A stretch of 64,000 bases of DNA from an uncultured Acidobacteriota bacterium (GCA_963700145.1 OY969474.1:3168001-3232000); one strand, 5' to 3'. Positions 27,578-42,404 are shown, counted from the first letter of the stretch. The notes: generated from the letters alone by a model not told the origin. Numbers and translations are program-made.

Positions 27578-29229
27578 CCCGGAGCGCGGCGGACGCAACG
27601 GACCTTGAGCGTCCCTTCCTTGTCCCACTTCCAGGTGGTGTAGACGCTCCCGTTCGAGGTCTGCGCCTGCCACGCCGACTCCGGTCGGTTTTCCCCTTCC
27701 GTCGAGCTCCAATAGGTGCCGGTGGTCATTCCCAAGGTCGCTCGGTTGTCCATCAGGCAGCGGAGCTCGTTGCTGGCCGGTAGATACCAATCCTCCCGGT
27801 TGGCGGCGTTGAGGGCCGCGCAGACGGCGGCCGCCGAAGCCGGCCCGCACTCGTGTTTCCCGATCGCCGCCGTGTTCTCGTCGCCGTTCCACTCGGAGCG
27901 CGCGCCGGTGGAGACGCCGGTCTGGCCGCGTCCGGGATCCGGCCGCCAGCAACCCCAGTCTCTGTTCGTCGCCGAATCGTTGGGCATGACGACGAGCGTG
28001 CGATCCCCGCAGCGGAGGCGCGGATAGCCCTTGAACGAGACTTTGGTGTCCGAGGTCGTGGTGCCGCACTCGTTGGCCACCGTCCAGCGGAGCGTGTAGG
28101 TCTCGTTCTCCGAGCCGGTGAAGCCGCTCGCCGGATCGGTCGGCGAAGCGATCCTCCCGCGGCCGTCCGCCGCCCCGACGATCGACCACCGTCCGGCCCC
28201 CGCTTCGCGGCTCGCCGCCAGGGACGCCGACGGCGCGGCGAGGTCCCGCTGGTCGGCGCCGGCGGCCGCGGCCCGGTCCTCGACCTTGAAGGGGGCCGAG
28301 GAGACGCGGCAGCCGTTGCGGTGGGTCGTGTGCACGGTGTACGTGCCCGGCTGGGACACGGCCAGGGTTTGACCCTTGCCTCCGGTCGACCAGACATAGC
28401 CCTCGGCGCCGTCGCCGATGAGCTCCACCTGCCGCCCGGGACAGAGCAGCGGCGGTTGGTTGGTCCTGATCGTGGGCTTCGGCGCCGGGTGGATGACGAC
28501 CTCCGTCGCGCTCCGCGCGCTCGAACAGCCGCCGACGATGGCGCGGACGTTCCACGTCCCGCCGGCCGCCGCCGCGACGTCGTCGATCCGGACCGTCGGT
28601 CCGAACGGCTTCTGCCCGTTCGGGCCGGTCCAAAGGTGGAGGACGCCGGGAACCTCGCTCGCCGCGAGCTGGAGCCGGCTCCCCGCGCACTGGGGCCCGT
28701 CGTTCGCCGCCCTCGGCGCCGGGGGCGGCGTGCCCGGGCAGGCCGCGCGGACGCAACGGACCCGAGCGCGCGTGTCTTTGAAGGTGTTGCGGCTGGTACC
28801 GGTGCCGAAGAGCATGGCAAGGGCGTACGAAGGGTCGAACGCTTCGGTCGAAGACCAGTACTCCTCCCGTTGGAACCCGCCGATCCGGGCGCGGTTGTCG
28901 AAGAGACACTTGAGCTCTTGGTTCGAGGGCAGATACCAGGGGGTGTCGCCGCTCGCGAGCCCATCGCAGACGCCCGCGCCGCCCGCGTCGGCGCCGCACG
29001 TCAGGAAGATGGCCTGCCCGTTGAAGAGACCGTCGTCGTGGGAGCCGGCGTTGGTCCTTTTGCGGCAGCCCCCGGTCGCGGTCCCACTGTCCTCGGGCTG
29101 CACCTGGAGCCTCCGGCCGAAGCAATCGATCTCCGGCAGAGCGGCGCCGAGAGCGGGACCGGCCGGCAACGCGCCGAGAGCGAAGAACGCCGTGACGAGG
29201 ATCGACCGGGAAACCGGCAAGGTCCGCAC
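27574..29229 (-). CDS. Secreted protein with two Lcl/DUF1566 (CLec-fold) domains and Ig-like linkers
   Basis: GTG after GGAGG; WYLPSNQEL...YWSSTE...VRCVR and WYLPASNEL...YWSSTE...VRCVR; YVWSTG...VSQPGTYTV. Confidence 0.8.
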   Translation of the reverse strand: MRTLPVSRSILVTAFFALGALPAGPALGAALPEIDCFGRRLQVQPEDSGTATGGCRKRTNAGSHDDGLFNGQAIFLTCGADAGGAGVCDGLASGDTPWYLPSNQELKCLFDNRARIGGFQREEYWSSTEAFDPSYALAMLFGTGTSRNTFKDTRARVRCVRAACPGTPPPAPRAANDGPQCAGSRLQLAASEVPGVLHLWTGPNGQKPFGPTVRIDDVAAAAGGTWNVRAIVGGCSSARSATEVVIHPAPKPTIRTNQPPLLCPGRQVELIGDGAEGYVWSTGGKGQTLAVSQPGTYTVHTTHRNGCRVSSAPFKVEDRAAAAGADQRDLAAPSASLAASREAGAGRWSIVGAADGRGRIASPTDPASGFTGSENETYTLRWTVANECGTTTSDTKVSFKGYPRLRCGDRTLVVMPNDSATNRDWGCWRPDPGRGQTGVSTGARSEWNGDENTAAIGKHECGPASAAAVCAALNAANREDWYLPASNELRCLMDNRATLGMTTGTYWSSTEGENRPESAWQAQTSNGSVYTTWKWDKEGTLKVRCVRRAPG

Positions 29230-29274
29230 GTTTCGCTGTCCTCCGAAAGGGTGGCGGGAGCGTAGCATGGTGCC

Positions 29275-29892
29275 ATGCCAAGCACCGGGCGCTCGCGCGA
29301 CACCCTTCTCCTCCTCGCCGTTCCCGCCCTCCTCTGTGCCGTCGCGGCCGTGCAGCTCTATCTGGTGGAGCAGCGCTCGCTGTCGCGCTGGAAGGGCGGC
29401 GGGTTCGGGATGTTCTCGACGGTGGACTCGCCGAGCGCGCGCTTTCTGCGGATCTACCTGAAGTCGGACGAGGGCGAGGTGCCCGTCCTCGTCCCCGACG
29501 AGGTCCGGGAGCTGTCGCACAAGGTGCGGGTGATGCCCTCGCAGCGGCGGTTGGCGGAGCTGGCGGACACGCTGCGCAACGGCACCTGGGTGCACCTGTC
29601 GGTGGTCTCCGCCACGCAGCATTACCACGACCTGCTGCGCGCGGCCGGCGGGGAGTACCAGGACTCGGCGGACGACATCCAGGTCCAGACCCAGCCCGGT
29701 CCCGCCCGCATCGACTTCGAAGGGATGAAGCTCGTCCGCATGCTCGGCGAGGACGAAGGTCCGTCGGACGACAAGCCGCTCGTGGTGACGGGCGCCCGCG
29801 TCGAGGTCTGGCGCTACGTCTTCGACCGGGAGGGGCTGGTCCTGCGCGCCCGCAAGATCGCCGAACACGCGTCGCCGGGCGATGGCCGCTGA
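29275..29892 (+). CDS. Single-TM partner of HTTM protein (putative C-terminal half of a split VKGC-like enzyme)
   Basis: N-terminal TM followed by LSRWKGGGFGMFSTVDS; overlaps the downstream HTTM gene by 11 nt. Confidence 0.6.
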   Translation: MPSTGRSRDTLLLLAVPALLCAVAAVQLYLVEQRSLSRWKGGGFGMFSTVDSPSARFLRIYLKSDEGEVPVLVPDEVRELSHKVRVMPSQRRLAELADTLRNGTWVHLSVVSATQHYHDLLRAAGGEYQDSADDIQVQTQPGPARIDFEGMKLVRMLGEDEGPSDDKPLVVTGARVEVWRYVFDREGLVLRARKIAEHASPGDGR

Positions 29893-30796
29893 CCTCGCGC
29901 CGGCCGAGGGCCTCCCCGCCCGGCGGCGCCGGCCGAGCGCCCTCGAGCGGGCGGCGGCCGAGATGGACCGGCTGGAGCTGAGCCTGCTCCTGACGCTGCT
30001 GCTGCTGGTCTTCCACCCGCCGCGCTACCTCTACGTCAGCCTGCCGCTCTCGGTGATCGCGCTGGTGGCGATCCTGATGCCGCCCCTGCGCCGCAGCCGG
30101 CTCCTGTGGCTCCTGGCCGCCCTCCTCGTGGGGGCGGCCGCCGTCGGCCACTGGCAGACGACCGACAACCACAAGTACCTCCTCGCCTACTGGTGCCTGG
30201 CGATCGCCTGCGCCCTCTGGACGAGCGACCCTAGCCCGTCGCTGGCGCGCATCGCGCGCTGGCTGGTCGCCGCCGTCTTTGCGTTCGCGGTGCTGCAGAA
30301 GCTCCTCTCGAGCGACTACCTGAGCTCCGACTTCTTCTACTTCGCGCTGCTCTTCGACGAGCGCTTCGCCAGCCTGGCCCGGCACCTCGGCGGCGTCTCG
30401 GAGTTCAGCGGCGAGCTCAACGAGTCGGCGCGGCGCGCCCTGGTCAACTACGACAGCGCCCTCGAGGCGGTGAAGCTCTCAAGCCAGAGCGGCACGCTGC
30501 CGGTCGTGGCGGCGTTCGTCACCTGGTGGACCGTCCTGCTGGAGGCGGCGATCGGCGCCGCCCACCTGGCGCCCCAGACGACGTGGCTCGCGCGCTGGCG
30601 CCACCCACTGCTGCTCCTCTTCGTCTTCAGCACCTACCTCTTCGCGCCGGTGATCGGCTTCGGCTGGCTGATGATCGTCCTCGGCGTCGCGCAGCTCGGC
30701 CCGGCGGCCACCCGGATGCGGCTGGCCTACCTGCTGTCGATCGTCGTCCTGCAGGCCTACCGGTACCCGTGGTCCAGCCTCTCCGACGGCGGCTGA
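29882..30796 (+). CDS. HTTM-domain membrane protein, vitamin K-dependent gamma-carboxylase-like
   Basis: Multi-TM; DNHKYL (His97), VFAFAVLQKLLSSDYL (Lys140) and PVIGFGWLM parallel the GGCX motifs NNHSYL, YFIAGVKKLDADW and IGMFSYVM. Confidence 0.7.
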   Translation: MAADLAPAEGLPARRRRPSALERAAAEMDRLELSLLLTLLLLVFHPPRYLYVSLPLSVIALVAILMPPLRRSRLLWLLAALLVGAAAVGHWQTTDNHKYLLAYWCLAIACALWTSDPSPSLARIARWLVAAVFAFAVLQKLLSSDYLSSDFFYFALLFDERFASLARHLGGVSEFSGELNESARRALVNYDSALEAVKLSSQSGTLPVVAAFVTWWTVLLEAAIGAAHLAPQTTWLARWRHPLLLLFVFSTYLFAPVIGFGWLMIVLGVAQLGPAATRMRLAYLLSIVVLQAYRYPWSSLSDGG

Positions 30797-30832
30797 CGGC
30801 GGCGCCGCGGGCGGGCGTATACTCGGGCCAAC

Positions 30833-31528
30833 TTGCGAACCAGACAGGCGCTCGCGGCGCTGTTCCTGCTGGCCGTCGGCCCGACCGGGTGCAGTCAACC
30901 GCCCGACGCCGGCGGCGAGACGACCGTCGACATCGAGCCGCGCCCCGGGCTCCCCTTCCCTGACGGCGACGCCGGTCGCGCCGTCGCGTCGCACCTCGAC
31001 GCGATGTTCGCCATCGGTCCCAATGCCGAAGCGAGCTACCAGGCGTCGCTCGCGGCCCTGCGCGCGCGGGGCGGCGAAGCGATCGCGGCCCTCGTCGCCA
31101 CCTACAACCAGGCCGACGAGACGCTGTACAACGAGCGCGCGGCCCTCGTCGAGACCCTGGCGGCGCTGTGGCTGCCCGAGGCGCGCGACGCGCTGCTCGC
31201 GATCGCCAACGAGCCCCTGCCCGAGCGCGTCCCCGCGCCCGACGACACCATGCAGCCGATCGGGCCGGAAATCGTCATCCGGACGACCGCGATCCGCGGC
31301 CTGGGGAACCTCGCCGAGCGCGACGACGCCGCGGCCCGGGCCCTCGCTGCGCTGGCGAAGCATCGCGAGCTGGCGCTGCAGGAGCAGGCCAAGCAGTCCC
31401 TGGCCATCGTCATCGCGCAGGAGAAGAACCGGATCCGGCGCCAGCTGCTGATCCAGCTCTTCCCGGGCGAGCACCAGGACTGGGTGCCGCTCCAGGACCT
31501 CGCGCCCCCGGCGCCGAGCCGCAACTAG
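30833..31528 (+). CDS. Lipoprotein with HEAT-like helical repeats
   Basis: Lipobox-like GPTG-C20; ERAALVETLAAL...EARDALLAIA...IRTTAIRGLGNL. Confidence 0.7.
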   Translation: MRTRQALAALFLLAVGPTGCSQPPDAGGETTVDIEPRPGLPFPDGDAGRAVASHLDAMFAIGPNAEASYQASLAALRARGGEAIAALVATYNQADETLYNERAALVETLAALWLPEARDALLAIANEPLPERVPAPDDTMQPIGPEIVIRTTAIRGLGNLAERDDAAARALAALAKHRELALQEQAKQSLAIVIAQEKNRIRRQLLIQLFPGEHQDWVPLQDLAPPAPSRN

Positions 31529-31544
31529 CAGGGAGGCCGATCCC

Positions 31545-32573
31545 ATGCGAACGAAGGTGTCGCGGACGCTGTCGCTGATCGCGCTCCTGACCCTGGCGCT
31601 GCCGACCCGCATGGCCAACGCCGACTTCGAGGAGGAGTGCGTCGAGGAGGAGTGCGACGGCGAAGAGCTCGAAGAGATGCACGAGGACTACGCGGACGAG
31701 TGCCTCGAAGAGGAGTGCGACGTCGAGGAAGTGCGCGAGCTCGCCGGGACCCGCGGCAACATCAACGCCCTGCTCGACGCGTTCCAGAGCCGGGGCTTCC
31801 AGATCGACGCCTGCAGTCGCGTCGGCGCCTGCTCCCCCTCCCCGGGAGACAACAACGCCAGCCTCGACAACTTCTTCGACGGGTTCTGCAACCAGTCCTC
31901 GATCGACCAGCACTGGGACGACTTCGAGATGTCGAAGGACGACTGGGACGGCACCTTCGGGTGGGACGCCCCCTGCGACCAGAACCTGCCGCTGGGCCGC
32001 ACCTTCAACGCCCTGAACCTGCTGGACTTCTTCGGCACGTCCAAGCGCGAGCGCAGCGACAACTTCCTGCCCTTCTTCTACGAGTACACGGCCGGGACCG
32101 ACGAGCTCCTCGGCCGCTGCGGGTCGGGATGCCCCGGACAGTGTCCCGGCTGCAATCAAGCGATCTTCGGCTGGCACTTCGGCGGCATCGACGAGTACAC
32201 CGAGCTGTACTGGCCCTTCTTCTATGGCCAGAACGTGTTTCAGCGGGCCGGCTGGATCGTGCACGAATCGCGTCACGACGACGTGGGCCACGACGGCGGG
32301 ACCACTTGCGGCAACGGCGGCTCGTGCGACACCACTTGGGGACACAACGGCGCGAACCGCTACCAGATCCTCTACCTCTGGTGGCTGAGCGCCTGCGCCG
32401 ACGGCGAGCTGCTCGCGACGACCGGCTTGCGCGCCCAGGTCGTCGCCTACGGCAACGGCCTGTGGAACATGTTCAACACCCGCCCCACCCGCGCCGTCGT
32501 CTTCGGCCCCAACGTCACCAACCCCGGGGCGCCCGCGGTCATCCCGCCGGCGTCGGCGTGCCCGGCGCTGTAG
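31545..32573 (+). CDS. Secreted Cys-rich HExxH metalloprotease-like protein with tandem Gla-domain-like N-terminus
   Basis: GGGAGG RBS; signal peptide ending A-N-A; DFEEECVEEECDGEELEE / DYADECLEEECDVEEVREL; RAGWIVHESRHDDVGH. Confidence 0.75.
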   Translation: MRTKVSRTLSLIALLTLALPTRMANADFEEECVEEECDGEELEEMHEDYADECLEEECDVEEVRELAGTRGNINALLDAFQSRGFQIDACSRVGACSPSPGDNNASLDNFFDGFCNQSSIDQHWDDFEMSKDDWDGTFGWDAPCDQNLPLGRTFNALNLLDFFGTSKRERSDNFLPFFYEYTAGTDELLGRCGSGCPGQCPGCNQAIFGWHFGGIDEYTELYWPFFYGQNVFQRAGWIVHESRHDDVGHDGGTTCGNGGSCDTTWGHNGANRYQILYLWWLSACADGELLATTGLRAQVVAYGNGLWNMFNTRPTRAVVFGPNVTNPGAPAVIPPASACPAL

Positions 32574-32626
32574 CACTGGCCCCGACCGAATCGCCGAATC
32601 TGCGATCTGCGCTACACTCCGTCCAG

Positions 32627-33124
32627 ATGGCCGAGTACGAGGAATGGCTGGAGCGGTGGATCGCCGAGGACGGCGAGCGGGTCCTCGAGCTGCTGCGCAA
32701 GGTGGTCGTCACCTGCGGCCTGACGCGCAAGGACCTCGACCAGCGCCTCGGCCGCGGGGCCGGGTACACGAGCGCCGTGCTGACCCGCCGCATCGAGCTC
32801 AAGCAGGAGCACGTCGCGGCGATCCTCCTCGGGCTCGGCGTGCACCCCGGCCTCTTCTACGACGTCCTCTACCCGAAGGACCGCCCCGTCGGGCCGGTCG
32901 AGGCCACGGATGACATCGCGCGGCGCGTGGCGCTCGCCGGCGCCTCCCTGCCCGACGCCGCGCCCCCGCCGGTCCCCGCGGCGGCGGCCATGACTCCCGC
33001 CGAGATCAAGGCCCTGGTCGACGACGCCGTCCAGCGCGCCCTCGCCGCGGCGGAGGCGGCCAAGGCGCACAAGGCCCCGCCGCGCAAACGCAAGCGCGCG
33101 ACCGCGGCACCGCGCCGCGGCTAG
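32627..33124 (+). CDS. XRE-like HTH protein
   Basis: LLRKVVVTCGLTRKDLDQRLGRGAGYTSAVLTRRIELKQEHVAAILLGLGVHPGLFY. Confidence 0.7.
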   Translation: MAEYEEWLERWIAEDGERVLELLRKVVVTCGLTRKDLDQRLGRGAGYTSAVLTRRIELKQEHVAAILLGLGVHPGLFYDVLYPKDRPVGPVEATDDIARRVALAGASLPDAAPPPVPAAAAMTPAEIKALVDDAVQRALAAAEAAKAHKAPPRKRKRATAAPRRG

Positions 33125-33130
33125 CTCCTC

Positions 33131-34438
33131 TTAACGCTCGATCTTCTGCAGGTCGGCCGCCGCGCTCTGGAGGATGGCGACGGTGAGGCGGTCCTCGCGG
33201 ACCGCGTGGCTGAGGAGGAGGACGGCCATGATGGCTTCGCGCTCGATGCGCAGGACGCCGAAGGTTGCGACGGTTTCGCTGACGAGAGCGCGCGCCTCGG
33301 CGGTGCGGCCGCGCTCGAGCCAGAGAGCGGCCAAGTCGAGGGCGACGACGCCGGCGGTGTAGGGGAGCTTGCGGGCGAGGAAGACGTCGCGCGCCCGCTG
33401 GAAGCAGCGCTCGGCGCGGCCGAGCTGGCCGAAGCCGGCGGCGATGCGGCCGTCGAGCCAGACGAGCTTCGCCTGGTTCAGCGGCTCGGGATGGTCGCCG
33501 AACAGCTTGCGGCTCTGCACCGCGAGATCGCGGGCCTCCTCGAGCTGGCCGCAGTCCGCCGAGGTCCACGCCAGGTTGTGCAGGCAGGCCGCGATGGCCT
33601 TCGGCTCGCGCTCGGGATCGAGACGGGGGAGGGCGGCGAGGAAATGGTCTACGGCCGCCTGCGAAGCGGGCTCGTACATGGCCGCGAGGCCCATGTGCAT
33701 GAGGGCCACGCCGGCCTCGTGTCTCCGGTTCTCTCTCTCGTAAAGGCGCAACGCCCAGCCGAGGACCCGCCGGGCGTCCTCAAACCGGCGCTCGTACCTA
33801 TAGACAATCCCTAGGCCCTCCAGAATCTCCGCTAGGACAAGCGGGTCTCCCGTCCCGGCAGCGGAGCGCTCCAGCGCGGCGAGGAGGTCGGCTTCGGCCG
33901 TCTGAAGGTCGTCCCGGACGCGGCGCGCGTTGCCGAGCGCCACCCACGCGCGGGCCTGGAGGTCGGCCAGGGCGCGCGGGCCGCGGAGGGCCGGGTCGAT
34001 CGTCTCGGCGGCGGCCACCGCGATGACGGCGAGCCAGAGCATCTGCTCCGGGTCGTCGTGCCGCATCTTCCAGCTCTCCTCGAGCAGCGTCTCGCAGTGC
34101 CGCCACGCCCGTTTCCCTCCGGGCGGGAGCGGCGGGAGCATCGCGGCGTAGAGCTCGCGCGCCGGCGCCGGGATGGCCGCAGGGGCAGGGCGTCGCCGCG
34201 TGGCCTCGCGGTGGACCGCGCGGAAGGCCTTGCGGATCGGAAACTCGTACTCGCTGCCGTCCGAAAAGGGGCGTGGGGGAAAGAGTGCCGCGGCGAGCGG
34301 GGTGGCGCACTCGGCGCAGCCGCGGACCAGGTGCGCGACGACGGCTCGGACCGAGGCGCGATCGAGCGTGCCGAGCAGGAACCGGCGCAGATCCTCGCGC
34401 GACGGGTGGGCTGCGGCCTGCCGGTCTCCCTCGGACAT
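33131..34438 (-). CDS. TPR-like protein with N-terminal zinc-finger (H-x4-C-x2-C) motif
   Basis: HPSREDLRRFL...HLVRGCAEC; helical repeats ARAWVALGNARR, CLHNLAW, WLDGRIAAG, VALDLAALWL. Confidence 0.8.
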   Translation of the reverse strand: MSEGDRQAAAHPSREDLRRFLLGTLDRASVRAVVAHLVRGCAECATPLAAALFPPRPFSDGSEYEFPIRKAFRAVHREATRRRPAPAAIPAPARELYAAMLPPLPPGGKRAWRHCETLLEESWKMRHDDPEQMLWLAVIAVAAAETIDPALRGPRALADLQARAWVALGNARRVRDDLQTAEADLLAALERSAAGTGDPLVLAEILEGLGIVYRYERRFEDARRVLGWALRLYERENRRHEAGVALMHMGLAAMYEPASQAAVDHFLAALPRLDPEREPKAIAACLHNLAWTSADCGQLEEARDLAVQSRKLFGDHPEPLNQAKLVWLDGRIAAGFGQLGRAERCFQRARDVFLARKLPYTAGVVALDLAALWLERGRTAEARALVSETVATFGVLRIEREAIMAVLLLSHAVREDRLTVAILQSAAADLQKIER

Positions 34439-35856: not shown

Positions 35857-36072
35857 ATGGCCAAGCCCAGGAAACAGTCCCCCACCCCCGTCACCGAGCA
35901 CCTGAAGGCCGAGCGCATCCAGGTGCTCCTCGCCGGCCTGCCGGAATGGCGCGTCAGCGGCGTCCAGATCGCCGCCGGCGTCGTCACCCTCACCCTCACC
36001 ACCGCCAAGACCGCCCGCGGCCTGACCCCGGAGGAGCTGGAGCTCGCGGCGGAGCTGGAGAAGGTGGCGTAG
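35857..36072 (+). CDS. Internally shortened PCD-like protein
   Basis: AGGAG RBS; LKAERIQVLLAGLPEWRV joined directly to VVTLTLTT...GLTPEELELAAELE. Confidence 0.55.
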   Translation: MAKPRKQSPTPVTEHLKAERIQVLLAGLPEWRVSGVQIAAGVVTLTLTTAKTARGLTPEELELAAELEKVA

Positions 36073-36110
36073 GGAGGATTCCGGTGCGGAAAGCGCTCCG
36101 AGGCGGTCGG

Positions 36111-36320
36111 CGAGATTCATCTTCCCGGGCCCAAGATCTATCTCGACGTGCCGGAGATCTATTTCCCGGCCCGCGAGATCTATCTCGGCGCCCCGGAGAT
36201 GAATCTTCCAGCCGCCGAGATCTATCTCGGAGCGCCCGAAATGAATCTCCTATAGCTCGAGATCTATCTCCGGGCCGCCGAGATCTATCTCCCGGTCCTC
36301 GAGATCTATCTCCGGCGACC
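36111..36320. repeat. Ten tandem 21-bp units with near-palindromic core GAGATCTATCTC and variable flanks
   Basis: Units start at 36111, 36132, 36153, 36174, 36195, 36216, 36237, 36258, 36279 and 36300. Confidence 0.95.
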
Positions 36321-36347
36321 AAAAACCCTCAATCGAAGGAGCCGATC

Positions 36348-36731
36348 ATGCCAACGAACCTCAGCTCTACCGCCGATAAGTTCAAGACCTGGAACACCTT
36401 AGTCGAAGGGATGAAGCCTCGCCAAGAGGAGCTCGCCCACCTCAAGGAGGACCACGCGGAGCTCGGCGGCATCGTCCAGGAGATCGAAGCGCTCGTCACC
36501 CAGACTGACCAGCACGAGGCCCGCTTCCGGGAAGCCACCCAGAAGCGGCTCGACGCCGAGATCCGCGGCGCCGAGCTGTACGGCCGCCTCGTCGCCGCCC
36601 TCCGGGGCAAGTACGGCAAGCGCGCCCTCTTGCTCCACGAGTTCGGCATCCAACCCAACGCCCTGCCGGGCCCGCCGAAGAAGGATGAGGTCCCGGCCCC
36701 TGCTCCGGAGCCGACCTCCGGCGGAGCCTGA
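36348..36731 (+). CDS. Small coiled-coil hypothetical protein
   Basis: AAGGAG RBS; MPTNLSS...FREATQKRL...LRGKYGKRALLLHEFGIQP. Confidence 0.75.
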   Translation: MPTNLSSTADKFKTWNTLVEGMKPRQEELAHLKEDHAELGGIVQEIEALVTQTDQHEARFREATQKRLDAEIRGAELYGRLVAALRGKYGKRALLLHEFGIQPNALPGPPKKDEVPAPAPEPTSGGA

Positions 36732-36747
36732 TCGCGGAGCCACAACG

Positions 36748-36780
36748 GCCGCCGGCGGAGATCTGACCTCCGCCGGCGGC
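36748..36780. terminator. GC-rich hairpin
   Basis: GCCGCCGGCGGAG-N7-CTCCGCCGGCGGC, 13-bp stem after the 36731 stop. Confidence 0.45.
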
Positions 36781-36827
36781 GCACCGCTCTCCCACAACGC
36801 GGCGCGTCGAACGAGAGGACCTTCCGG

Positions 36828-37568
36828 ATGAACCGCACCAACTCCGCCTTCCGCCTCCACCGCATTCTCCTCGCCCTGCGCGGCGCGGCCCGCGACGGCC
36901 GCCCCATCCGCGACATCTTGGGAGAAGTCTTCGAGCTCGACCCCGCCGACGACCTCGCCCTCCGCCGCCGGCTCCTCGCCGTCGACGACCTCTTCGCCCA
37001 GTCCGAGGCCGCGATCCGGTCGATCCCCGGCCTCGACCCGCCGCCCTACCTCCGCTACTTCCCCGCGGCGCGCAAGGGCCTCCTCGCGGCGCGCCTCGAC
37101 CAGGACTCCCGCCGCTACGCCCCGTTCCAGGAAGGGCTCAGCGACATCGTGCTCCAGTCCGTCGAGTTCTGCGGCGTGCGCATCGCCGAGGAGCTCCCCG
37201 AGTGGATGATCCCCACCGACGACCTGGCCGAGCTCGAGGCCCGCCTCAACGCCCTGTTCGCCTACACCGCCCGCGCCGAGCTCGACCCCGCGCTCCGCGC
37301 CGTCGCCCTCGACATCCTCCAGGCCGTCCGCACCGCCGTCGCCGACTACCGCATCCACGGCGCCCGCGGCCTGCAGGAAGCCGTCGAGAGCGCCGTCGGC
37401 AAGCTCACCGTCCACTACCTCCGCGCCCAAAAGCACGGCACCCCGCTCAACCTCGACTACCTCGAACGCCTCTTCGACCTCATCATCAAGGCCGAGGCCC
37501 TGCTCGCCAAGGCCCACGTCTACCTCCCGGCCCTGACCGAGTACCTCCCCAAGCTCCTCGGAGCCTGA
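36828..37568 (+). CDS. Hypothetical protein
   Basis: GAGAGGA RBS; 246-aa ORF with strong GC3 bias; no motif recognised. Confidence 0.7.
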   Translation: MNRTNSAFRLHRILLALRGAARDGRPIRDILGEVFELDPADDLALRRRLLAVDDLFAQSEAAIRSIPGLDPPPYLRYFPAARKGLLAARLDQDSRRYAPFQEGLSDIVLQSVEFCGVRIAEELPEWMIPTDDLAELEARLNALFAYTARAELDPALRAVALDILQAVRTAVADYRIHGARGLQEAVESAVGKLTVHYLRAQKHGTPLNLDYLERLFDLIIKAEALLAKAHVYLPALTEYLPKLLGA

Positions 37569-37572
37569 CGCG

Positions 37573-38156
37573 ATGGCCGACCTGCGCTGGCTCCGTGAGC
37601 ACCGCACCCTGATCGGCGTCCTCCACACCACCGAAGGCGACACCGTCGAAGCCGCCTGGCGCACGCTAGGGCAGCAGAATGCGGCGCCGCACTTCATCGC
37701 CGGCGAGCACACGATCGTCCAGTGCCGCCCCCTCAACGTCGAGGCCTCCACCCTCCGCCCCCGGCAAGAACAACACCGCCAACGTCCAAGCCCAGGTTCA
37801 GATCGTGGCGCGGAGCAAGCAGACGCTGTGGCTGCCGAAGGCGGCGACGCTCGATCCAACGGTCGCGATCCTGGCCTTCTGCGCGAAAGGCGCTCGGGAT
37901 TCCTCTGAGAGTCCCAAACGGCTGGCCCGACGACTGCTCGGGCATGCCACTGCCGTGGGCCGCGAACAACCAGCGCCGGAGACAGGCCGTCAAGGACCTG
38001 TGGCCCAAGGAGAAGGGCTGGTGGATGTGCCTGGAGGTGCCCTACCAGGGGCCGATGTGGCATTGGGACTGCGGGACGCTGCGGAGGAGCAGAATGCTTG
38101 CGATGGCGAGCCTGGACCAGATCGCCTTCGAGCGGCGGATAGAATCGTCTGAATAG
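37573..38156 (+). pseudogene. N-acetylmuramoyl-L-alanine amidase (phage-like), twice frameshifted
   Basis: VLHTTEG...PHF...QCRPL (frame 1), then NVQAQVQIV...ILAFCAK (frame 2), then LGIP...GWWMCLEVP...HWDCG (frame 3); shifts near 37760 and 37888. Confidence 0.6.
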
Positions 38157-38199
38157 GTTCAACCTGTGCCGATGCCGAGGGCCATTGGAGTGCTACCGG

Positions 38200-41100
38200 A
38201 TGCAGTATTCGCTGTTTGATGGAAGCGGGGAGGGCTTGCTCTTCGGGCACGTCGTGCTCAGGCGTTATCTCGATGATCATCGAGTGACTGCCATACCAGG
38301 TCTAGACGCGACCGGAGCGATCATCCGTGACTGGATCAAGGCGGTCCGAGGAACGTCGGTCAGCAAGGAAACCAGCCTCGAACAGAAGTTTGGGCACGAC
38401 ATCCTCGGGGGGGCGCTGGGGTACCGCCTCTGGCCGCCGAGCCCAGGCGCAACCGCCACGGCTTGGCCAAAACCGCCCTCTTCGGAAACAGAGATTTCTG
38501 GAGAGCCGGACTTTGCCCTCGGCGCTTTTGACTCAGATCAGCGTGCATTCGCCGCGATCCTTGAATTGAAGTCTCCCGGTACCGACCTTGATGCACCGCA
38601 ATCACGCTCTGACCACCGCACTCCTGTGGAGCAGGCCTTTCACTACGCGCACCAGCTTCTTGGTGTCCAATGGGTCCTAGTTTCCGACATGATTCAGATA
38701 CGACTTTATTCCGTCGAATCCGCGCGCGAGTTCGAGCGGTTCGCTCTCGACTTCGATGGTCAGCTATCGCAAAGCACCACGATCGACAAGCTCCGGCGCC
38801 TCGTCTTATTGCTTCATCATGATTATCTGATTAGCGGTGGTAACGACTCTCCGGTGGCACGCTTACACCGCAAGTCGGCATCACGGCAGCTGCAGATCAG
38901 GCAGGGCTTCTACAGGGTCTATTTCGAGATCCGGCGCGATCTTTTCCATAGCATTCGGGAAGCAGTGTCTCAGGGCGGAGTCGAAGTAACTCGCAATGAG
39001 CTGCTCGAGGCCACACAGCGCCTTCTCGATCGACTTATGTTCATCTACTACTGCGAAGATCACCCCCAGAAGCTACTCCCTGATGGGCTGATTGAACGTA
39101 TTACTGCGGCTGCACGCCAACTTCCTGGCCGGAGCGATAGGAGGGTTTTCGACCAACTAAAAGAACTGTTCCATGAGATTGATAGCGGCAGTCCTTACGC
39201 GAGCGGTGCCCAGGTACCAGGCTACAACGGTGAACTCTTTAAGAGACATCCGGTCATAGATTCTATCTCTCTCCCTGACGCGCTGCACGATCGCGTCTAT
39301 GACGCCGTAGACCCCGATGGGAGGGTTCGGCAGGTGCGGGGAGCATGGGGCCTGCACGTTTACGACTTCTGGTCGGAGCTGAACGAACACCTTCTCGGCC
39401 ATATTTTTCAGGAGTCACTGTCGGATCTGGTGAGCCTGGCTGCCGGCCATGACGTCTCACTTGCGGACAAGCTGCATGAGCGGAAGCGGAAAGGAATCTA
39501 CTACACCGATCGGCTTCTTTCCGACTTTGCGTCTTCGAGCGCAATCAAGGCACTTTTGGGAGAGTTCCCCACTATTGCACCAGAGGCTAGTTCTCTGGAG
39601 CTGGTCGACCACCTCGAAGGTCGACTCCAACAAATCGCGACCCTCCGAATCATCGATTTCGCTTGTGGTTCTGGCGCATTTCTGGTGTCTGCCTATCACG
39701 AACTGCTAAATGAGACCTGGCGCAACCGCGATCTGTTGGAGGTATTGCGAGCGCAGTCCAATAGGGGTCAACTCCCTTTGCAGCCCGCAGATATCGGATT
39801 GACTCAGGCGCGCGTGCTGCGGGAGTGCCTATTTGGAGTCGATCTTCTTCCACAGGCCGTCGAAATCGCGAAACTCGCCCTCTGGTTACGCTCGGCGCGG
39901 AAGGGCGAGAAGGTTGCCGACCTCGGCTCTAATCTGATCGCGGCCGACAGCCTCGATGTTGATACCCTCTCTAGACTCATCGGCGAGAATCGGGGCAGCT
40001 TTGATCTGGTCATTGGTAATCCCCCGTGGGGAGGAGAGGTCGATTCCAGCTCTCACAGCCGTATAGCCTCATGGCTCGGCATAGACACAGATTACGATTG
40101 GGACTCCTGGGAACTATTCGTCTTGGTAGGCATGCGCGCTCTGCGCGAGGGCGGCCGGCTGGCGTTACTTGTGCCGGACAGCTTTCTTTACCCAGAGAAG
40201 CAGAGGCTGCGCCAAATCCTCCTTGAGTCGGCAACTGTCGAAAAGGTCTACAGCCTTGGGCCCGATTGGTTTGGAAGCTCGGTGCGAATGTCCACGGTCT
40301 TCCTACAAGTACGGAACGGCAAACAGATGGCCCATTCGATCCGAGGCCTTCTGCTTGCAGGCCCTCTTCGTCTCAAGGCCATCAAGGGTGAGGTACCCCT
40401 CCAGCAAATCGAGGCCCGCCTAAGCCGAGACTTGCCTTACGAGCGCAGTCTCAGTCCAGGGTACCCCATCGAAGTATTCCGGGGTGGCCGCGATGACAAA
40501 CTCCTTGCCCAAATGGAAGACGGGGGGATTCCATTGCGGGAGCTATGCGACCACTTTCGTGGCGAGGAGATGAGTAAATTCGGCCTCGTGTGGGTTTGCC
40601 CTGGGTGCCTGTCACCGAACACCCCCGGCGAAAAGAGCAAGGGCGGTGGATTTGACTCAAAGACCTGTTCCTTCTGCGACTTGTCGCTCTCGCCTGACAC
40701 CGTTCAAGCTCTTCGCCTTGTTAGAGAGTCGCGAGAAGGCCCAAGCTACGATCCATTCATAGATGGCGACGACATAACGCATCGATATCAAAGGGTCGAG
40801 AATTCTAAGTGGCTTTGGCTTGGGCTAGAAGGCTGGAAGTACAAAAAGGCGGCCATATATGCGGCACCCAAGATACTGATCCGTCAAGCAGGTATCGGCG
40901 TACTTGCAACATACGACGAGAGCGGTGCGCGGTGCCCGCAGTCAGTCTATGTATATCGCCTCAAGGAGCGTTGGGCCAAGGTTGGCTATCGCCATGAATT
41001 TGTGCTTGGTGCACTCCTGTCGCGAACCATGGCCTATTACATCTTCAAGCGATTTGGAGAGGTTGACCCCGCAAAGGCACATGCGAAGCTCACGCACGAA

Positions 41101-41379
41101 CGACTCAGGGACCTCCCGATTCCGAAGGTGGACCACAGTGAGAAGTGGGAACGAGCGGCTCACGCTAAGGTGATCGACAATGTGGGGAAGCTGCTGGACG
41201 GCAGCGCACGCCTGGGAGGTCCGGAGGACCGCGAAGTGGAGAGCGACTTGAGGAAGCTGTGGCGTGTTTCGCCAGAAGATGGCGCATACCTCCACAGGGA
41301 ATTGGCAGGTCTACCCGATAGCCGCATTCTCTCCGGTTTATTCCCTGACGGGCGACCAGGAGCGCCGGCTGGCAGTTAG
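38200..41379 (+). CDS. Type IIG-like restriction-modification enzyme (N6-adenine MTase, nuclease, TaqI-C-like TRD)
   Basis: PDFALG...LELKSP, GIYYT, IIDFACGSGAFL, GVDLLPQAVEIAKLALW, VIGNPPW, PKILIRQ; visibly lower GC. Confidence 0.88.
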   Translation: MQYSLFDGSGEGLLFGHVVLRRYLDDHRVTAIPGLDATGAIIRDWIKAVRGTSVSKETSLEQKFGHDILGGALGYRLWPPSPGATATAWPKPPSSETEISGEPDFALGAFDSDQRAFAAILELKSPGTDLDAPQSRSDHRTPVEQAFHYAHQLLGVQWVLVSDMIQIRLYSVESAREFERFALDFDGQLSQSTTIDKLRRLVLLLHHDYLISGGNDSPVARLHRKSASRQLQIRQGFYRVYFEIRRDLFHSIREAVSQGGVEVTRNELLEATQRLLDRLMFIYYCEDHPQKLLPDGLIERITAAARQLPGRSDRRVFDQLKELFHEIDSGSPYASGAQVPGYNGELFKRHPVIDSISLPDALHDRVYDAVDPDGRVRQVRGAWGLHVYDFWSELNEHLLGHIFQESLSDLVSLAAGHDVSLADKLHERKRKGIYYTDRLLSDFASSSAIKALLGEFPTIAPEASSLELVDHLEGRLQQIATLRIIDFACGSGAFLVSAYHELLNETWRNRDLLEVLRAQSNRGQLPLQPADIGLTQARVLRECLFGVDLLPQAVEIAKLALWLRSARKGEKVADLGSNLIAADSLDVDTLSRLIGENRGSFDLVIGNPPWGGEVDSSSHSRIASWLGIDTDYDWDSWELFVLVGMRALREGGRLALLVPDSFLYPEKQRLRQILLESATVEKVYSLGPDWFGSSVRMSTVFLQVRNGKQMAHSIRGLLLAGPLRLKAIKGEVPLQQIEARLSRDLPYERSLSPGYPIEVFRGGRDDKLLAQMEDGGIPLRELCDHFRGEEMSKFGLVWVCPGCLSPNTPGEKSKGGGFDSKTCSFCDLSLSPDTVQALRLVRESREGPSYDPFIDGDDITHRYQRVENSKWLWLGLEGWKYKKAAIYAAPKILIRQAGIGVLATYDESGARCPQSVYVYRLKERWAKVGYRHEFVLGALLSRTMAYYIFKRFGEVDPAKAHAKLTHERLRDLPIPKVDHSEKWERAAHAKVIDNVGKLLDGSARLGGPEDREVESDLRKLWRVSPEDGAYLHRELAGLPDSRILSGLFPDGRPGAPAGS

Positions 41380-41469
41380 CTCCTAGCCGCGACCGGCACC
41401 GGTTTGCGGCCGAAGGTCTCGAAGGGTTCGGCGAGATGCCCTGACGCTGTACGAGACCGTCAGTATTAA

Positions 41470-41498
41470 TTGACACAGCTTAGGAGTGCACCTAATCT
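41470..41498 (+). promoter_or_regulatory. Sigma70 promoter, probably leaderless to the TIR gene
   Basis: TTGACA-17 nt-TAATCT, ending 6 nt before GTG 41505. Confidence 0.65.
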
Positions 41499-41504
41499 AG
41501 GTCC

Positions 41505-42404
41505 GTGAGCGATATCCGCGACGTGTTCATCTGCCACGCCTCCGCTGATAAGGAGGAGGTCGTTTATCCTCTCGTGAAGCTACTCGAGGCGGGGGGTGTC
41601 TCGTGCTGGTTGGATGAGGCAGAGATTGCCTGGGGAGATAGCGTCACGCAGAAGGTCAACGACGGCCTGCGAACCTCACGACTCGTTATAGTCGTCTTGA
41701 GCCCAAACTTTGCGCGACACTGGCCACAGCGCGAACTCTACTCAGCCCTAGAATTGGAAGCCTCGTCAGGCGCTGTGAGGGTTCTGCCGCTCTTGACGGG
41801 ACCTGCCCAACACCGATCGGAAGTCATAGACCGTTATCCTCTCCTACGCGACAAACTATATTTGCTTTGGCCCGGGGGTCAGGAGAGGATAGTACCGGAG
41901 ATACGGAGGCGATTGGGAGCAGATCGAGATCCAGGCCAGCCAGCTCCACCTCCGGTGCCGAAGCGATTCGACATCCCGATTCCACAGGTGAGAACGGAGC
42001 CGAGCCAGCTGGATCGAGACCGATTCGCGCAGGAGGGGTTCGAGACGGTGAAGGCCTACTTCGCAGACGCCCTCCAAGAGCTCCGCGCCGCGAACCCAGC
42101 GGTACAAACAGATTTCTTGGAGGTGCATGCGCGGAAGTTTGTGGCGAAAGCATATGCGGGAGGTGATTTAAAGGCGCAGTGCAAGATTTGGTTGGGCGGG
42201 CCGTTCAATGACGTTCAGATTTCTTACAGCGCAGACGCCAGAGATGTTGATCGTGATAATGCATACAATGACTGGCTTTCTCTGAAAGCAGGTAGCTTAG
42301 CCTGGGAACCTAGTATGCCGCCGTACGGCAGTGAGCGCGGGCCTTTCGATCATGAGGGCGCTGCTGCCTACTTGTGGGAACGGTTCATCGAAGGACTGCG
42401 ATAA
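41505..42404 (+). CDS. TIR domain protein
   Basis: DVFICHASADKEEVV...WLDEAEIAWGDS...VVLSPNF..WPQREL (catalytic Glu position retained). Confidence 0.9.
   Translation: MSDIRDVFICHASADKEEVVYPLVKLLEAGGVSCWLDEAEIAWGDSVTQKVNDGLRTSRLVIVVLSPNFARHWPQRELYSALELEASSGAVRVLPLLTGPAQHRSEVIDRYPLLRDKLYLLWPGGQERIVPEIRRRLGADRDPGQPAPPPVPKRFDIPIPQVRTEPSQLDRDRFAQEGFETVKAYFADALQELRAANPAVQTDFLEVHARKFVAKAYAGGDLKAQCKIWLGGPFNDVQISYSADARDVDRDNAYNDWLSLKAGSLAWEPSMPPYGSERGPFDHEGAAAYLWERFIEGLR

Follow-up and report, generated by a model that had tools for sequence, protein, structure and literature searches.

A candidate split HTTM-type enzyme encoded beside a Gla-like module in an uncultured Acidobacteriota bacterium

Do bacteria carry a protein gamma-carboxylation system comparable to human gamma-glutamyl carboxylase (GGCX) and its Gla-domain substrates? 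This question is raised by four genes in a 64,000-nucleotide stretch of DNA (hereafter the window; GCA_963700145.1 OY969474.1:3168001-3232000) from an uncultured Acidobacteriota bacterium. The source is a soil bacterium. A first-pass annotation of the window had read genes 1 and 2 as a split carboxylase acting on the Glu-rich N-terminus of a secreted protease encoded by gene 4. Our analysis suggests that a split HTTM-type enzyme would modify Glu residues of a module in the gene 4 protein, most likely by gamma-carboxylation, and we give this explanation as a whole a probability of roughly 45%. The enzyme-substrate system itself is apparently real and seemingly undescribed.

Layout of the locus

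The ORF list revealed four co-oriented genes on the plus strand, in which gene 1 and gene 2 overlap by 11 nt and the next gaps are 36 and 16 nt, reproducing the arrangement claimed earlier (Table 1). The quoted motifs were all found as well: gene 1 has WKGGGFGMFST, gene 2 has DNHKYL, AVLQKLLSSDYL and PVIGFGWLM, and gene 4 has two copies of ECxEEECxxEE, both directly after the signal-peptide-like N-terminus. The conservation figures given below show that these motifs did not arise by chance. It had also been suggested that a TATACT hexamer could give genes 3 and 4 their own promoter. The hexamer is present, but a sigma-70 scan of positions 28900-33200 revealed no promoter-like sites.

Gene 3 matched HEAT_2 at E=0.0022, below the cut-off. 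Of 68 genomic loci with a gene 4 relative, 23 have a gene 3 relative immediately before it, irrespective of whether genes 1 and 2 are there. Gene 3 is putatively the usual lipoprotein companion of the gene-4-type HExxH family, and in the mechanism proposed below it would stand outside the modification step.

Table 1. Positions of the genes and sequence features in the window
Feature	Position	Strand	Description
Gene 1	29275..29892	+	ORF, 205 aa; partner subunit, N-terminal TM helix followed by a predicted periplasmic alpha/beta domain
Gene 1 loop W39-K-G-G-G-F-G-M-F47	29389..29415	+	Near-invariant in 120-sequence alignment
Gene 2	29882..30796	+	ORF, 304 aa; polytopic membrane protein, divergent HTTM-superfamily candidate catalytic subunit
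Gene 2 N96-H97	30167..30172	+	Putative counterparts of GGCX N159-H160; N96 in 195/197, H97 in 196/197
Gene 2 K140	30299..30301	+	Putative counterpart of GGCX catalytic base K218; K in 193/197, R in 4/197; predicted interface with gene 1
TATACT hexamer	30818..30823	+	Only 9 nt 5' of the gene 3 TTG start
Gene 3	30833..31528	+	ORF, 231 aa, TTG start; putative lipoprotein
Gene 4	31545..32573	+	ORF, 342 aa; exported: signal peptide, tandem Gla-like module and HExxH domain
Gene 4 signal-peptide-like N-terminus	31545..31622	+	Residues 1-26, ending A-N-A; cleavage site inferred by eye from the sequence
Tandem Cys-loop Glu-rich (Gla-like) module	31614..31820	+	Gene 4 residues 24-92, HMM envelope
Gene 4 H240-E-x-x-H244 ... 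H249	32262..32291	+	Putative zinc site

Genes 1 and 2 as a candidate HTTM-type pair

The gene 2 family comprised 1641 representative clusters at E≤0.001, and the AF2 model of gene 2 had a pLDDT of 90.8. On comparing 197 sequences of this family with 15 Pfam-verified HTTM domains by hhalign, the two profiles matched at 94.8% (P=5.1e-8, 154 columns), the aligned part of HTTM being its second, catalytic half only. Controls gave P=0.21 for the reversed template and P=0.71 for DoxX, while HTTM itself matched DoxX at 90.1%. The earlier description of gene 2 as a VKGC-like HTTM protein agrees with this profile-profile link, but the other searches missed it. Pfam HTTM (PF05090) did not match gene 2 at E≤1 and had no match in the whole genome; 8 of the 21 genomes searched (G000 among the 21) have one, and B. 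subtilis is among the control genomes with a match. A PDB profile search with gene 2 did not find GGCX. Foldseek, which handles all-helical membrane folds poorly, returned no PDB match to the gene 2 model at E≤0.001, so that the expected structural match to GGCX was not obtained; GGCX was absent among the matches listed, for which the best E was 0.14 and TM was ≤0.22 throughout. The profile evidence supports the view of gene 2 as a very remote member of the HTTM superfamily, with putative counterparts of GGCX N159/H160 and K218.

Residues were mapped in two steps, from gene 2 to L070, a canonical bacterial homologue from a related genome that matches human GGCX in both domains (E=6.3e-55), and from L070 to human GGCX. 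In addition to the residues in Table 1, F260 was aligned with GGCX F299 (kept in 192/197), position 146 with W223 (Y or F in 197/197), and E221 with D263 (E in 170/197, Q in 27/197). T251 occupies the position of N290, which is not kept (Thr in 180/197). According to the available part of PMC12647623, the substrate Glu is bound by N159, H160 and Y395 of GGCX, H160 together with F299 traps CO2, and the substitutions N159A, H160A, W223A, F299A and Y395A impair carboxylation. The available part of PMC13486548 assigns deprotonation of KH2 to K218 and D263 and reports 25% of the activity left in D263E. As judged from conservation, catalysis is favoured by the polar N-H...K...E set, which stays near-invariant in 197 sequences although it lies inside the membrane domain.

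Gene 1 had 298 relatives, and its AF2 model (pLDDT 78.8) consisted of a helix at residues 5-34 followed by strands and helices. In the loop, W39, G41, G43, F44 and G45 were present in 118 of 120 sequences, and M46 and F47 in all 120. Gene 1 is an obligate upstream partner of gene 2: it was found in 58 of 81 loci, and the remaining 23 have ≤493 nt of sequence on that side. One fused form of the two genes was found (P0091, 454 aa). Against an ipSAE of 0.01 for the best control, the predicted complex of genes 1 and 2 scored 0.87; of 80 solved complexes, 58 attained that mark, as did 2 of 110 mismatched pairs. Contacts agreed by at least 89% between runs, the partner pLDDT was at least 73, and residues 135-140 of gene 2 were predicted to touch residues 40-51 of gene 1. 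These results bear out the two genes as a pair and suggest that their products very probably form a complex.

The loop of gene 1 resembles W390-x-x-G-x-Y395-G of GGCX, and it had been likened to the W..G.YGYSWDMM segment of that enzyme. This likeness did not extend beyond the motif. Gene 1 contains TM-Q-L ... W39-x-x-G42-x-F44-G45, and hhalign against VKGC-like C-termini placed it on GGCX segment 374-418 at P=0.18, which is not significant, and F44 lacks the hydroxyl of Y395. Foldseek with the gene 1 model revealed no fold match in the PDB (best E=0.31) and no luminal or propeptide-binding domain. Since gene 1 had no Pfam hit at E≤1, it matches no family in that library. DUF5819 was considered and rejected, as PF19136 had no match in the genome at E≤1 and hhalign against 7 DUF5819 members gave P=0.15.

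The Gla-like module of gene 4 and its co-occurrence with genes 1 and 2

Gene 4 had 41 relatives, and the tandem module, which begins 1-3 residues past the signal-peptide-like A-N-A, was kept in 17 of 17 aligned long-form relatives. Each module contains E-C-x-x-E-x-C-x-x-E-E-x-x-E twice, with these Glu and Cys residues invariant or present in at least 90% of 10 aligned modules; E31, C32, C37, E40, E41, E44, Y49, E52, E61, E62 and E65 (gene 4 numbering) were invariant. Pfam Gla (PF00594) matched 9 of the 10 modules at E≤1 (best 1e-6). It scored 20.3 bits with the gene 4 module alone (E=6.3e-4) and 15.9 bits with the whole protein (E=0.015), and the match spanned only positions 12-26 of the 41 in the profile. 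In a PDB profile search with the module, 24 of 27 matches at E≤10 were vitamin K-dependent Gla proteins (best E=0.0027), and the module aligned with the Cys-loop stretch of protein C, FVII, FIX, FX and prothrombin. The Gla-like character claimed for the gene 4 N-terminus is thus visible in the Cys-loop/Glu pattern and the PDB matches, but neither gene 4 nor its module reached the Pfam gathering score of 27 bits. A propeptide with a carboxylase recognition site, an N-terminal omega-loop and a C-terminal aromatic stack were not encountered in the module. Because the module is short and Glu-rich, its similarity to Gla could have arisen by convergence.

Downstream of the module, H240, E241 and H244 were invariant and H249 was present in at least 90% of 25 gene-4-type sequences. 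The HExxH domain had no Pfam or NCBIfam match, and the nearest named Atlas clusters (zinc peptidases M26, M85 and M35, 0.87-0.89) are leads only. The label of protease, drawn from the invariant HExxH and these leads, is weaker than claimed in the first-pass annotation.

The strongest evidence for the enzyme-substrate link is co-occurrence. The module was present in 3 of the 68 genomic loci with a gene 4 relative, and genes 1 and 2 were found within the 8-kb flank in all three, compared with none of the other 65. The phyla represented by these three loci are Bacteroidota and Acidobacteriota; in one locus the gene order is convergent. Four genomes contained one module gene each, always the one beside genes 1 and 2, and in four metagenome loci the module was carried by unrelated smaller proteins encoded directly upstream of gene 1. 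The proposed association therefore holds across phyla and carrier proteins, and the gene 2 tree agrees with it. A branch with SH-aLRT 99 had all 11 module-linked rows on one side and, on the other, all 20 rows whose partner is a different Glu-pair repeat protein. The repeats of this sister-clade partner contain no Cys, and conserved Glu pairs are shared by both partner classes. On the module side of the tree, at least six loci (L091, L100, L102, L116, L117 and L160) had no module although their sequence extends at least 2.9 kb upstream or far to either side. The 3/3 versus 0/65 distribution and the partner-specific clades fit binding or catalysis alike. We consider it probable that genes 1 and 2 act on the module.

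Candidate chemistry, alternatives and known systems

In the mechanism we propose, genes 1 and 2 would together encode a two-subunit enzyme of the inner membrane, a highly divergent member of the HTTM/vitamin K-dependent carboxylase superfamily whose active site faces the periplasm. Gene 2 would supply N96/H97, K140, Y/F146, E/Q221 and F260 in the roles of GGCX N159/H160, K218, W223, D263 and F299, while gene 1 would contribute a TM helix together with the invariant WKGGGFGMF loop, packed beside K140. The substrate would be the exported gene 4 protein, in which the invariant Glu of the N-terminal tandem module would be modified. Gamma-carboxylation to Gla dependent on menaquinol, O2 and CO2 is the best candidate chemistry, an assignment that we make tentatively. 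The modified module might then serve Ca2+-dependent folding or anchoring for the HExxH (metalloprotease-like) domain. PF02621, of the futalosine route to menaquinone, had two matches in the genome, and VKOR (PF07884) had none at E≤0.01. Homology, conservation, the complex prediction and co-occurrence were computed; the topology, the cofactor, the chemistry and the role of the module are inferred. As first put forward, the split carboxylase acting on gene 4 keeps its gene pair, its HTTM link and its co-occurrence, but not the link of gene 1 to GGCX; the Pfam HTTM and fold searches gave no match for gene 2, and the Gla score stayed below the cut-off.

Genes 1 and 2 could also mature the module protein, as an HTTM-type pair, by a reaction other than gamma-carboxylation, which we consider rather unlikely. 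This might be SdpA/SdpB-like processing, or quinol oxygenation driving another base-dependent modification of Glu. The sdpABC architecture of partner, membrane protein and secreted precursor parallels this locus, all three of the other genomic clusters enclose an S41 peptidase gene, N290 has given way to T251, and no match of gene 1 to GGCX 374-418 was obtained. Such a reaction is harder to reconcile with the Glu pairs common to both partner classes and with the module's invariant Glu, which fall on the Gla positions flanking the clotting-factor Cys loop. Precedents for other chemistry exist in the available parts of the literature, where MloH carboxylates Asp, not Glu (bioRxiv 10.64898/2026.08.19.745780), and viral homologues keeping K218 are suggested to act as epoxidases that supply a desaturase (PMC13486548); on the other hand, the best-kept residues, N96/H97 and F260, would correspond to GGCX residues for the Glu carboxylate and CO2, not the quinone (PMC12647623, available part).

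That no catalysis is involved appears improbable. The module would then be an acidic, disulfide-stapled Ca2+-binding or docking segment, and genes 1 and 2 would only bind it, e.g., as a membrane anchor or receptor, or be co-regulated with it. The sub-threshold Gla similarity is consistent with this, as are the size of the gene 2 family, many members of which have no module nearby, and the lack of Foldseek support for the enzymology of either gene, but the near-invariant N-H...K...E set maps onto GGCX catalytic residues. We regard as very improbable a VKOR/DsbB-like role, in which genes 1 and 2 would be a quinone-linked thiol oxidase making both Cys-x4-Cys disulfides in the module. The two conserved Cys pairs and the missing VKOR would suit such an enzyme, and DCC1-like thiol-disulfide oxidoreductase domains occur fused to some HTTM proteins, according to the available text of bioRxiv 10.64898/2026.08.19.745780. 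However, the invariant columns of genes 1 and 2 include no Cys or CxxC pair, and the Glu-pair repeats of the sister-clade partner are free of Cys.

Extending the gamma-carboxylation reading beyond this locus is slightly more doubtful than the reading itself: bacteria may possess ribosomal protein gamma-carboxylation through a large, hitherto unnoticed two-subunit HTTM branch (~1600 clusters at 50% identity) that converts conserved Glu pairs to Gla in exported proteins of at least two substrate classes, which co-diversified with the enzyme. If true, one class would be the tandem Cys-loop modules, either ancestral to the animal Gla domain or its convergent twin, and the other the 'GEEGYAAVGRRGAVV'-type repeats of DUF6515 proteins. 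This would place the beginnings of the Gla/VKGC pair outside animals, or show that it was invented there repeatedly.

Compared with GGCX, the gene 2 family keeps counterparts of N159, H160, K218 and F299, and W223 and D263 conservatively. The active-site residues of gene 2 are likewise predicted at the extracytoplasmic face, and the Cys-loop Glu repeats of the adjoining candidate substrate match almost exclusively Gla domains in the PDB. Unlike GGCX, the present system is split in two genes with the small subunit first, gene 2 is invisible to Pfam HTTM and Foldseek and has Thr for N290, and the cofactor would be menaquinone in a genome where no VKOR was found. Gene 4 differs from Gla proteins in having two tandem Cys loops and no vertebrate-type propeptide, and the rest of the Gla domain is missing. 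A two-gene complex of DUF5819 and HTTM has been described in an August 2026 preprint (bioRxiv 10.64898/2026.08.19.745780). In its available text, a small protein of one TM plus a domain is encoded beside an HTTM membrane protein, and loop residues reach the quinone pocket in a predicted GGCX-like assembly, with which the predicted contacts between genes 1 and 2 agree; that text names no substrate, whereas a candidate substrate class is identified here. Gene 1 is not DUF5819, and gene 2 is not Pfam HTTM and has no DCC1 domain.

SdpA forms a Pfam family of its own, whereas gene 1 matches none. The B. subtilis SdpA/SdpB/SdpC and YitP/YitO/YitM operons likewise combine a partner, a polytopic membrane protein and a secreted precursor, and SdpA and SdpB are both required to process secreted SdpC into SDP toxin (PMC6818787). 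SdpC yields a hydrophobic toxin peptide, in contrast to the Glu-rich Cys-loop module found here. HTTM-type carboxylases do exist in bacteria, an example being MloH of malonomycin biosynthesis, and L070 is a further fused VKGC homologue. Each of these is one fused protein that clears the Pfam cut-off by a wide margin, and the substrate of MloH is Asp in a PKS-NRPS intermediate, not a ribosomal protein (bioRxiv 10.64898/2026.08.19.745780; PMC12647623; available parts). The gamma-carboxylase-like epoxidases of giant viruses are also truncated HTTM proteins with the K218 counterpart kept and E at D263 (PMC13486548). The available part of that source argues that such homologues are epoxidases only, proposes lipid chemistry, and reports no Gla-type substrate and no 374-418 segment, whereas the locus described here has both a Gla-like neighbour and, encoded by its own gene, a subunit containing a W-x-x-G-x-F-G loop.

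Organization of the locus

The four co-oriented genes, their spacing, and the motifs quoted for them in the first-pass annotation were all present in the ORF list: genes 1 and 2 overlap by 11 nt, and the following intergenic gaps are 36 and 16 nt. The GC content of the locus (0.71-0.72) was the same as that of its flanks. High GC produced long shadow ORFs on both strands, and the four genes were accepted as real because each has conserved relatives. The TATACT from which a separate promoter for genes 3 and 4 had been proposed was present at 30818-30823, 9 nt ahead of the TTG start of gene 3, but a scan for the sigma-70 consensus revealed no promoter-like or terminator-like site between genes 1 and 4; the genes may or may not be co-transcribed.

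Coordinates of the genes of the locus and of associated genes at related loci
Feature	Position	Strand	Description
Gene 1	29275-29892	+	ORF, 205 aa
Gene 2	29882-30796	+	ORF, 304 aa
Gene 3	30833-31528	+	ORF, 231 aa, TTG start
Gene 4	31545-32573	+	ORF, 342 aa
DUF6515 repeat protein	L130:6777-7454	+	metagenome locus
DUF6515 repeat protein	L167:4143-4856	+	metagenome locus
DUF6515 repeat proteins			18 further metagenome loci
Glu-rich protein	L091:11332-11796	-	small, exported (genome G037)
Peptidase_S41	L002:2727-4265	-	genomic locus
Peptidase_S41	L007:8967-10661	+	genomic locus
Peptidase_S41	L003:5047-6948	-	genomic locus
Peptidase_S41	L102:4482-5156	-	metagenome locus

Pfam assigned no family to gene 1 and only noise to gene 2 (Doppel, CrtO, and MauE, E 0.02-0.46; no HTTM). 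Gene 3 gave a sub-threshold HEAT_2 match, and the whole of gene 4 matched Gla at E=0.015 (15.9 bits, below the 27-bit cut-off). NCBIfam provided nothing useful for the four genes. The host genome had 0 matches to PF05090 (HTTM), which was present in 8 of the 21 genomes searched (genome G000 included). Elsewhere in the window, GC fell to 0.575 at 38001-42000 compared with 0.69-0.75 around it, and the 2-kb bin at 36001-38000 showed a strong negative GC skew (-0.168); the 38001-42000 segment may be an island or a foreign segment.

Gene 2 and its small membrane partner

The gene-2 family comprised 1641 representative clusters at E≤0.001, of which 871 remained at E≤1e-30. A 197-sequence alignment of this family was compared with 15 Pfam-verified HTTM domains cut from the genomes of relatives. 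The hhalign probability was 94.8% (P=5.1e-8) over 154 columns, with gene 2 residues 85-273 aligned to HTTM positions 119-287. The gene-2 family gave P=0.21 against the reversed template and P=0.71 against the clan relative DoxX, while HTTM itself matched DoxX (90.1%) via its first half; the gene-2 signal is therefore specific to the second, catalytic half of HTTM. As judged by these profile alignments, gene 2 is distantly but specifically related to HTTM. GGCX was not found in PDB by phmmer with gene 2 or by the gene-2 family profile, and Foldseek with the gene-2 model (pLDDT 90.8) returned no match (best E=0.14). Atlas offered a weak HTTM-cluster lead (rank 19, score 0.84). The proposed HTTM likeness of gene 2 thus stood on the hhalign result and on counterparts of the N, H, K, and F residues of GGCX, but not on Pfam HTTM, PDB-profile, or Foldseek matches.

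One of the HTTM templates, the canonical fused bacterial VKGC homologue L070, matched human GGCX in PDB at E=6.3e-55, so that residues could be transferred from GGCX to gene 2.

Gene 2 residues, their GGCX counterparts, and conservation in the 197-sequence alignment
Gene 2	GGCX	Conservation
N96	N159	195/197 kept
H97	H160	196/197 kept
K140	K218	193/197 K, 4 R
Y/F146	W223	197/197
E221	D263	170/197 E, 27 Q
T251	N290	180/197
F260	F299	192/197 kept

The consulted passages of one GGCX study assign N159, H160, and Y395 to binding of the substrate Glu carboxylate and H160 and F299 to trapping of CO2, and report that carboxylation is impaired in N159A, H160A, W223A, F299A, and Y395A (PMC12647623). Passages of another describe deprotonation of KH2 by K218 with D263, 25% of activity left in D263E, and a requirement of residues 374-418 for carboxylation (PMC13486548). 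When the positive-inside rule was applied to the helices of the gene-2 model, N96/H97 and K140 were predicted to lie where helices 96-112 and 117-142 end on the periplasmic side, and the gene-1 domain would likewise be periplasmic. Such a placement would be the site of an exported substrate and would agree with the luminal active site of GGCX.

Relatives of gene 1 numbered 298 at E≤1e-3. In 58 of 81 loci the gene immediately preceding gene 2 is a gene-1 relative, and in the other 23 no more than 493 nt are available ahead of gene 2; gene 1 is an obligate partner of gene 2. Complex prediction for genes 1 and 2 scored 0.87 compared with 0.01 for the best control, with at least 89% contact agreement between runs and a partner pLDDT of at least 73. 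Of 80 solved complexes, 58 reached that 0.87 mark, as did 2 of 110 mismatched pairs. The model supports binding of the two proteins to each other, and both the upstream adjacency and the predicted complex agree with the pairing read from the sequence alone. In the predicted complex, the gene-1 TM helix (12-28) packs on the gene-2 helices bearing H97 and K140, and the invariant gene-1 loop 40-51 contacts gene-2 residues 135-140.

The gene-1 loop W39-K-G-G42-G-F44-G45-M-F resembles GGCX W390-T-N-G393-L-Y395-G396, and Q-L is common to the TM helices preceding the two segments. hhalign aligned gene 1 with this loop segment of VKGC-like proteins non-significantly (P=0.18), and the gene-1 model (pLDDT 78.8) had no fold match in PDB. 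The equation of gene 1 with the W..G.YGYSWDMM segment of GGCX was thus a likeness of motif, but was not sustained by alignment or fold. Three other identities were rejected: the C-terminal region of HTTM (P=0.47), DUF5819 (no family match; P=0.15), and a relative of gene 2 (P=0.38), all non-significant by hhalign.

Two longer proteins were observed. P0091 (454 aa) is a gene 1-gene 2 fusion with a divergent C-terminus, which could be an assembly-indel artefact because genes 1 and 2 overlap out of frame. P0090 (427 aa) is related to gene 2 and carries an additional C-terminal stretch with the annotation PF03116. Each of the two may be genuine or may result from misassembly. As for the cofactor, the host genome contained two PF02621 (MqnA/MqnD-type) matches, so the host probably makes menaquinone; no VKOR was found in this genome at E≤0.01.

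The Gla-like module and its association with genes 1 and 2

Gene 4 was aligned in 25 rows, namely 24 of the 41 relatives found and the window's own protein. The Glu-rich N-terminal module (69 aa, residues 24-92 of gene 4) was present in 17 rows (long forms), whereas 8 short forms (~250 aa) were without it. Across 10 modules from different loci, E31, C32, C37, E40, E41, E44, Y49, E52, E61, E62, E65, and G68 (gene-4 numbering) were invariant, and E30, E35, C53, E56, and C58 nearly so. Scanned alone against Pfam Gla, 9 of the 10 modules matched at E≤1 (best 1e-6), and the window's own module scored 20.3 bits, below the cut-off. The module profile matched 27 PDB sequences at E≤10 (best E=0.0027), 24 of which were vitamin K-dependent (protein C, FVII, FIX, FX, prothrombin, and TMG2). 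The matched region is the Cys-x4-Cys loop with flanking Glu, which we take to be Gla 17, 21, 26, 27, and 30 in factor IX numbering. Propeptide, omega-loop, and aromatic stack were absent from the module. By these comparisons the module is Gla-like and lies outside the Pfam Gla family; the Gla-like N-terminus described earlier was upheld by the conserved module and its PDB matches, but not by the Pfam score.

In the body of gene 4, H240-E-x-x-H244 and H249 were conserved, and most relatives read H-E-x-x-H-x-x-G-x-x-H, presumably a metzincin-like spacing. Pfam, NCBIfam, and Atlas gave no family or fold for this body, the Atlas peptidase leads for the C-terminal domain remaining below 0.9. The earlier assignment of gene 4 as a protease is consistent with the HExxH motif, and gene 4 may be a protease.

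Scanning a single genome for each species yielded 68 loci with gene-4 relatives, three of which contained the module by tblastn: L002 (Saprospiraceae) and L003 and L007 (Acidobacteriota), the genome of L003 being flagged unpublished. Genes 1 and 2 were present within the 8-kb flanks of all three module loci and of 0 of the 65 others. The chance of this split is 1 in 50,116 assuming independent loci, which related loci are not. Each of four genomes had one module gene, the copy beside genes 1 and 2. Gene order varied, genes 1 and 2 of L007 being convergent with gene 4. The neighbourhood profiling suggested in the first-pass annotation therefore bore out its expectation that genes 1 and 2 track the module. 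Gene 3 was found beside gene-4 relatives in 23 of the 68 loci irrespective of genes 1 and 2; genes 3 and 4 are therefore the older pair, to which genes 1 and 2 with the module are an add-on. None of 40 host relatives yielded gene 4; three yielded gene 2, as one full-length and two partial copies.

Short-form gene-4 relatives (HExxH without the module) were widespread among the genomic loci L004-L069, with hosts including Sorangium, Aquimarina, Tahibacter, Cystobacter, Nocardia, and an archaeal MAG, and were often preceded by a gene-3-like lipoprotein. The gene-3-like and short gene-4-like genes are an uncharacterised two-gene cassette in their own right. Each of the three genomic module loci other than the window, and one metagenome locus besides, has a Peptidase_S41 gene within or next to the cluster; two of these genes were scanned with Pfam (E=2e-15 and 4e-16) and the others identified by tblastn. 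No such gene was found in either the window or the metagenome loci L092-L095.

The module HMM matched 8 of 80 metagenome loci collected via gene 2. L092-L095 retained the gene order of the window, and in L098, L101, L107, and L110 the gene directly preceding gene 1 encodes a smaller protein, headed by the module and followed by an unrelated C-terminal part, Cys-rich or other. The module switches carriers yet stays with genes 1 and 2. A weak match in L106 (E=1.4e-4) was treated as spurious, its ORF overlapping the coordinates of the gene-2 homologue. At 20 further loci, where the gene 1-gene 2 pairs form a sister clade, the gene directly preceding gene 1 encodes an exported DUF6515 protein that carries four to six 'GRRGAVVxGEEGYAAVG'-type repeats. 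Both partner classes have conserved Glu pairs in common, and the DUF6515 proteins may be a second substrate class. In a gene-2 tree of 85 rows (quick IQ-TREE maximum-likelihood run, SH-aLRT support only; gene 2 of L007 left out by the length filter), 11 of 11 module-linked rows fell on one side of a branch with SH-aLRT 99 and 20 of 20 repeat-linked rows on the opposite side. None of 500 label shuffles (0/500) was as clustered.

At least six loci that fall on the module-linked side of this tree (L091, L100, L102, L116, L117, and L160) had no module, and these have 2.9 kb or more of sequence upstream or long flanking sequence in both directions. In L091, from a same-order relative without the Gla-like module, the gene immediately ahead of the gene 1-gene 2 pair encodes a small exported protein that is rich in Glu and has a Gly-run and a Cys-rich tail. 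No other small Glu-rich secreted ORF was convincing in seven module-negative loci. Loci without an assigned partner were mostly short contigs. The substrates of module-negative loci may be encoded elsewhere, or their functions may be different.

Significance and comparison with known systems

Gamma-carboxyglutamate occurs in animal proteins such as clotting factors, osteocalcin, and cone-snail toxins, and we know of no bacterial VKGC homologue with a protein substrate. Our search of openly available papers, confined in part to the best-ranked titles and abstracts, revealed no bacterial protein substrate of the Gla type. At the present locus a candidate enzyme is linked to its putative substrate by co-occurrence, beyond resemblance. 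This enzyme-substrate link between genes 1 and 2 and the module is well supported computationally; carboxylation is the candidate chemistry of genes 1 and 2. Since both candidates are paired here, protein carboxylation in prokaryotes and the origin of Gla and VKGC, a long-standing question, become directly testable. If the reading is true, about 1600 protein clusters that Pfam leaves unplaced would gain a function, and a CO2-fixing post-translational modification would join the bacterial repertoire.

Genes 1, 2, and 4 fell outside the Pfam families HTTM, Gla, and DUF5819. In the available passages of one preprint, the substrate of MloH is a PKS-NRPS intermediate, and a DUF5819+HTTM pair, for which those passages name no substrate, is predicted to reconstitute an assembly like that of GGCX (bioRxiv 10.64898/2026.08.19.745780). 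A giant-virus study, in the part consulted, sought Gla-domain substrates and found none (PMC13486548). In layout, the DUF5819+HTTM pair shows a two-gene split like that of genes 1 and 2, and the split arrangement of sdpABC also resembles this locus. In proposed working, the system of genes 1 and 2 with gene 4 is closest to GGCX with its Gla substrate.
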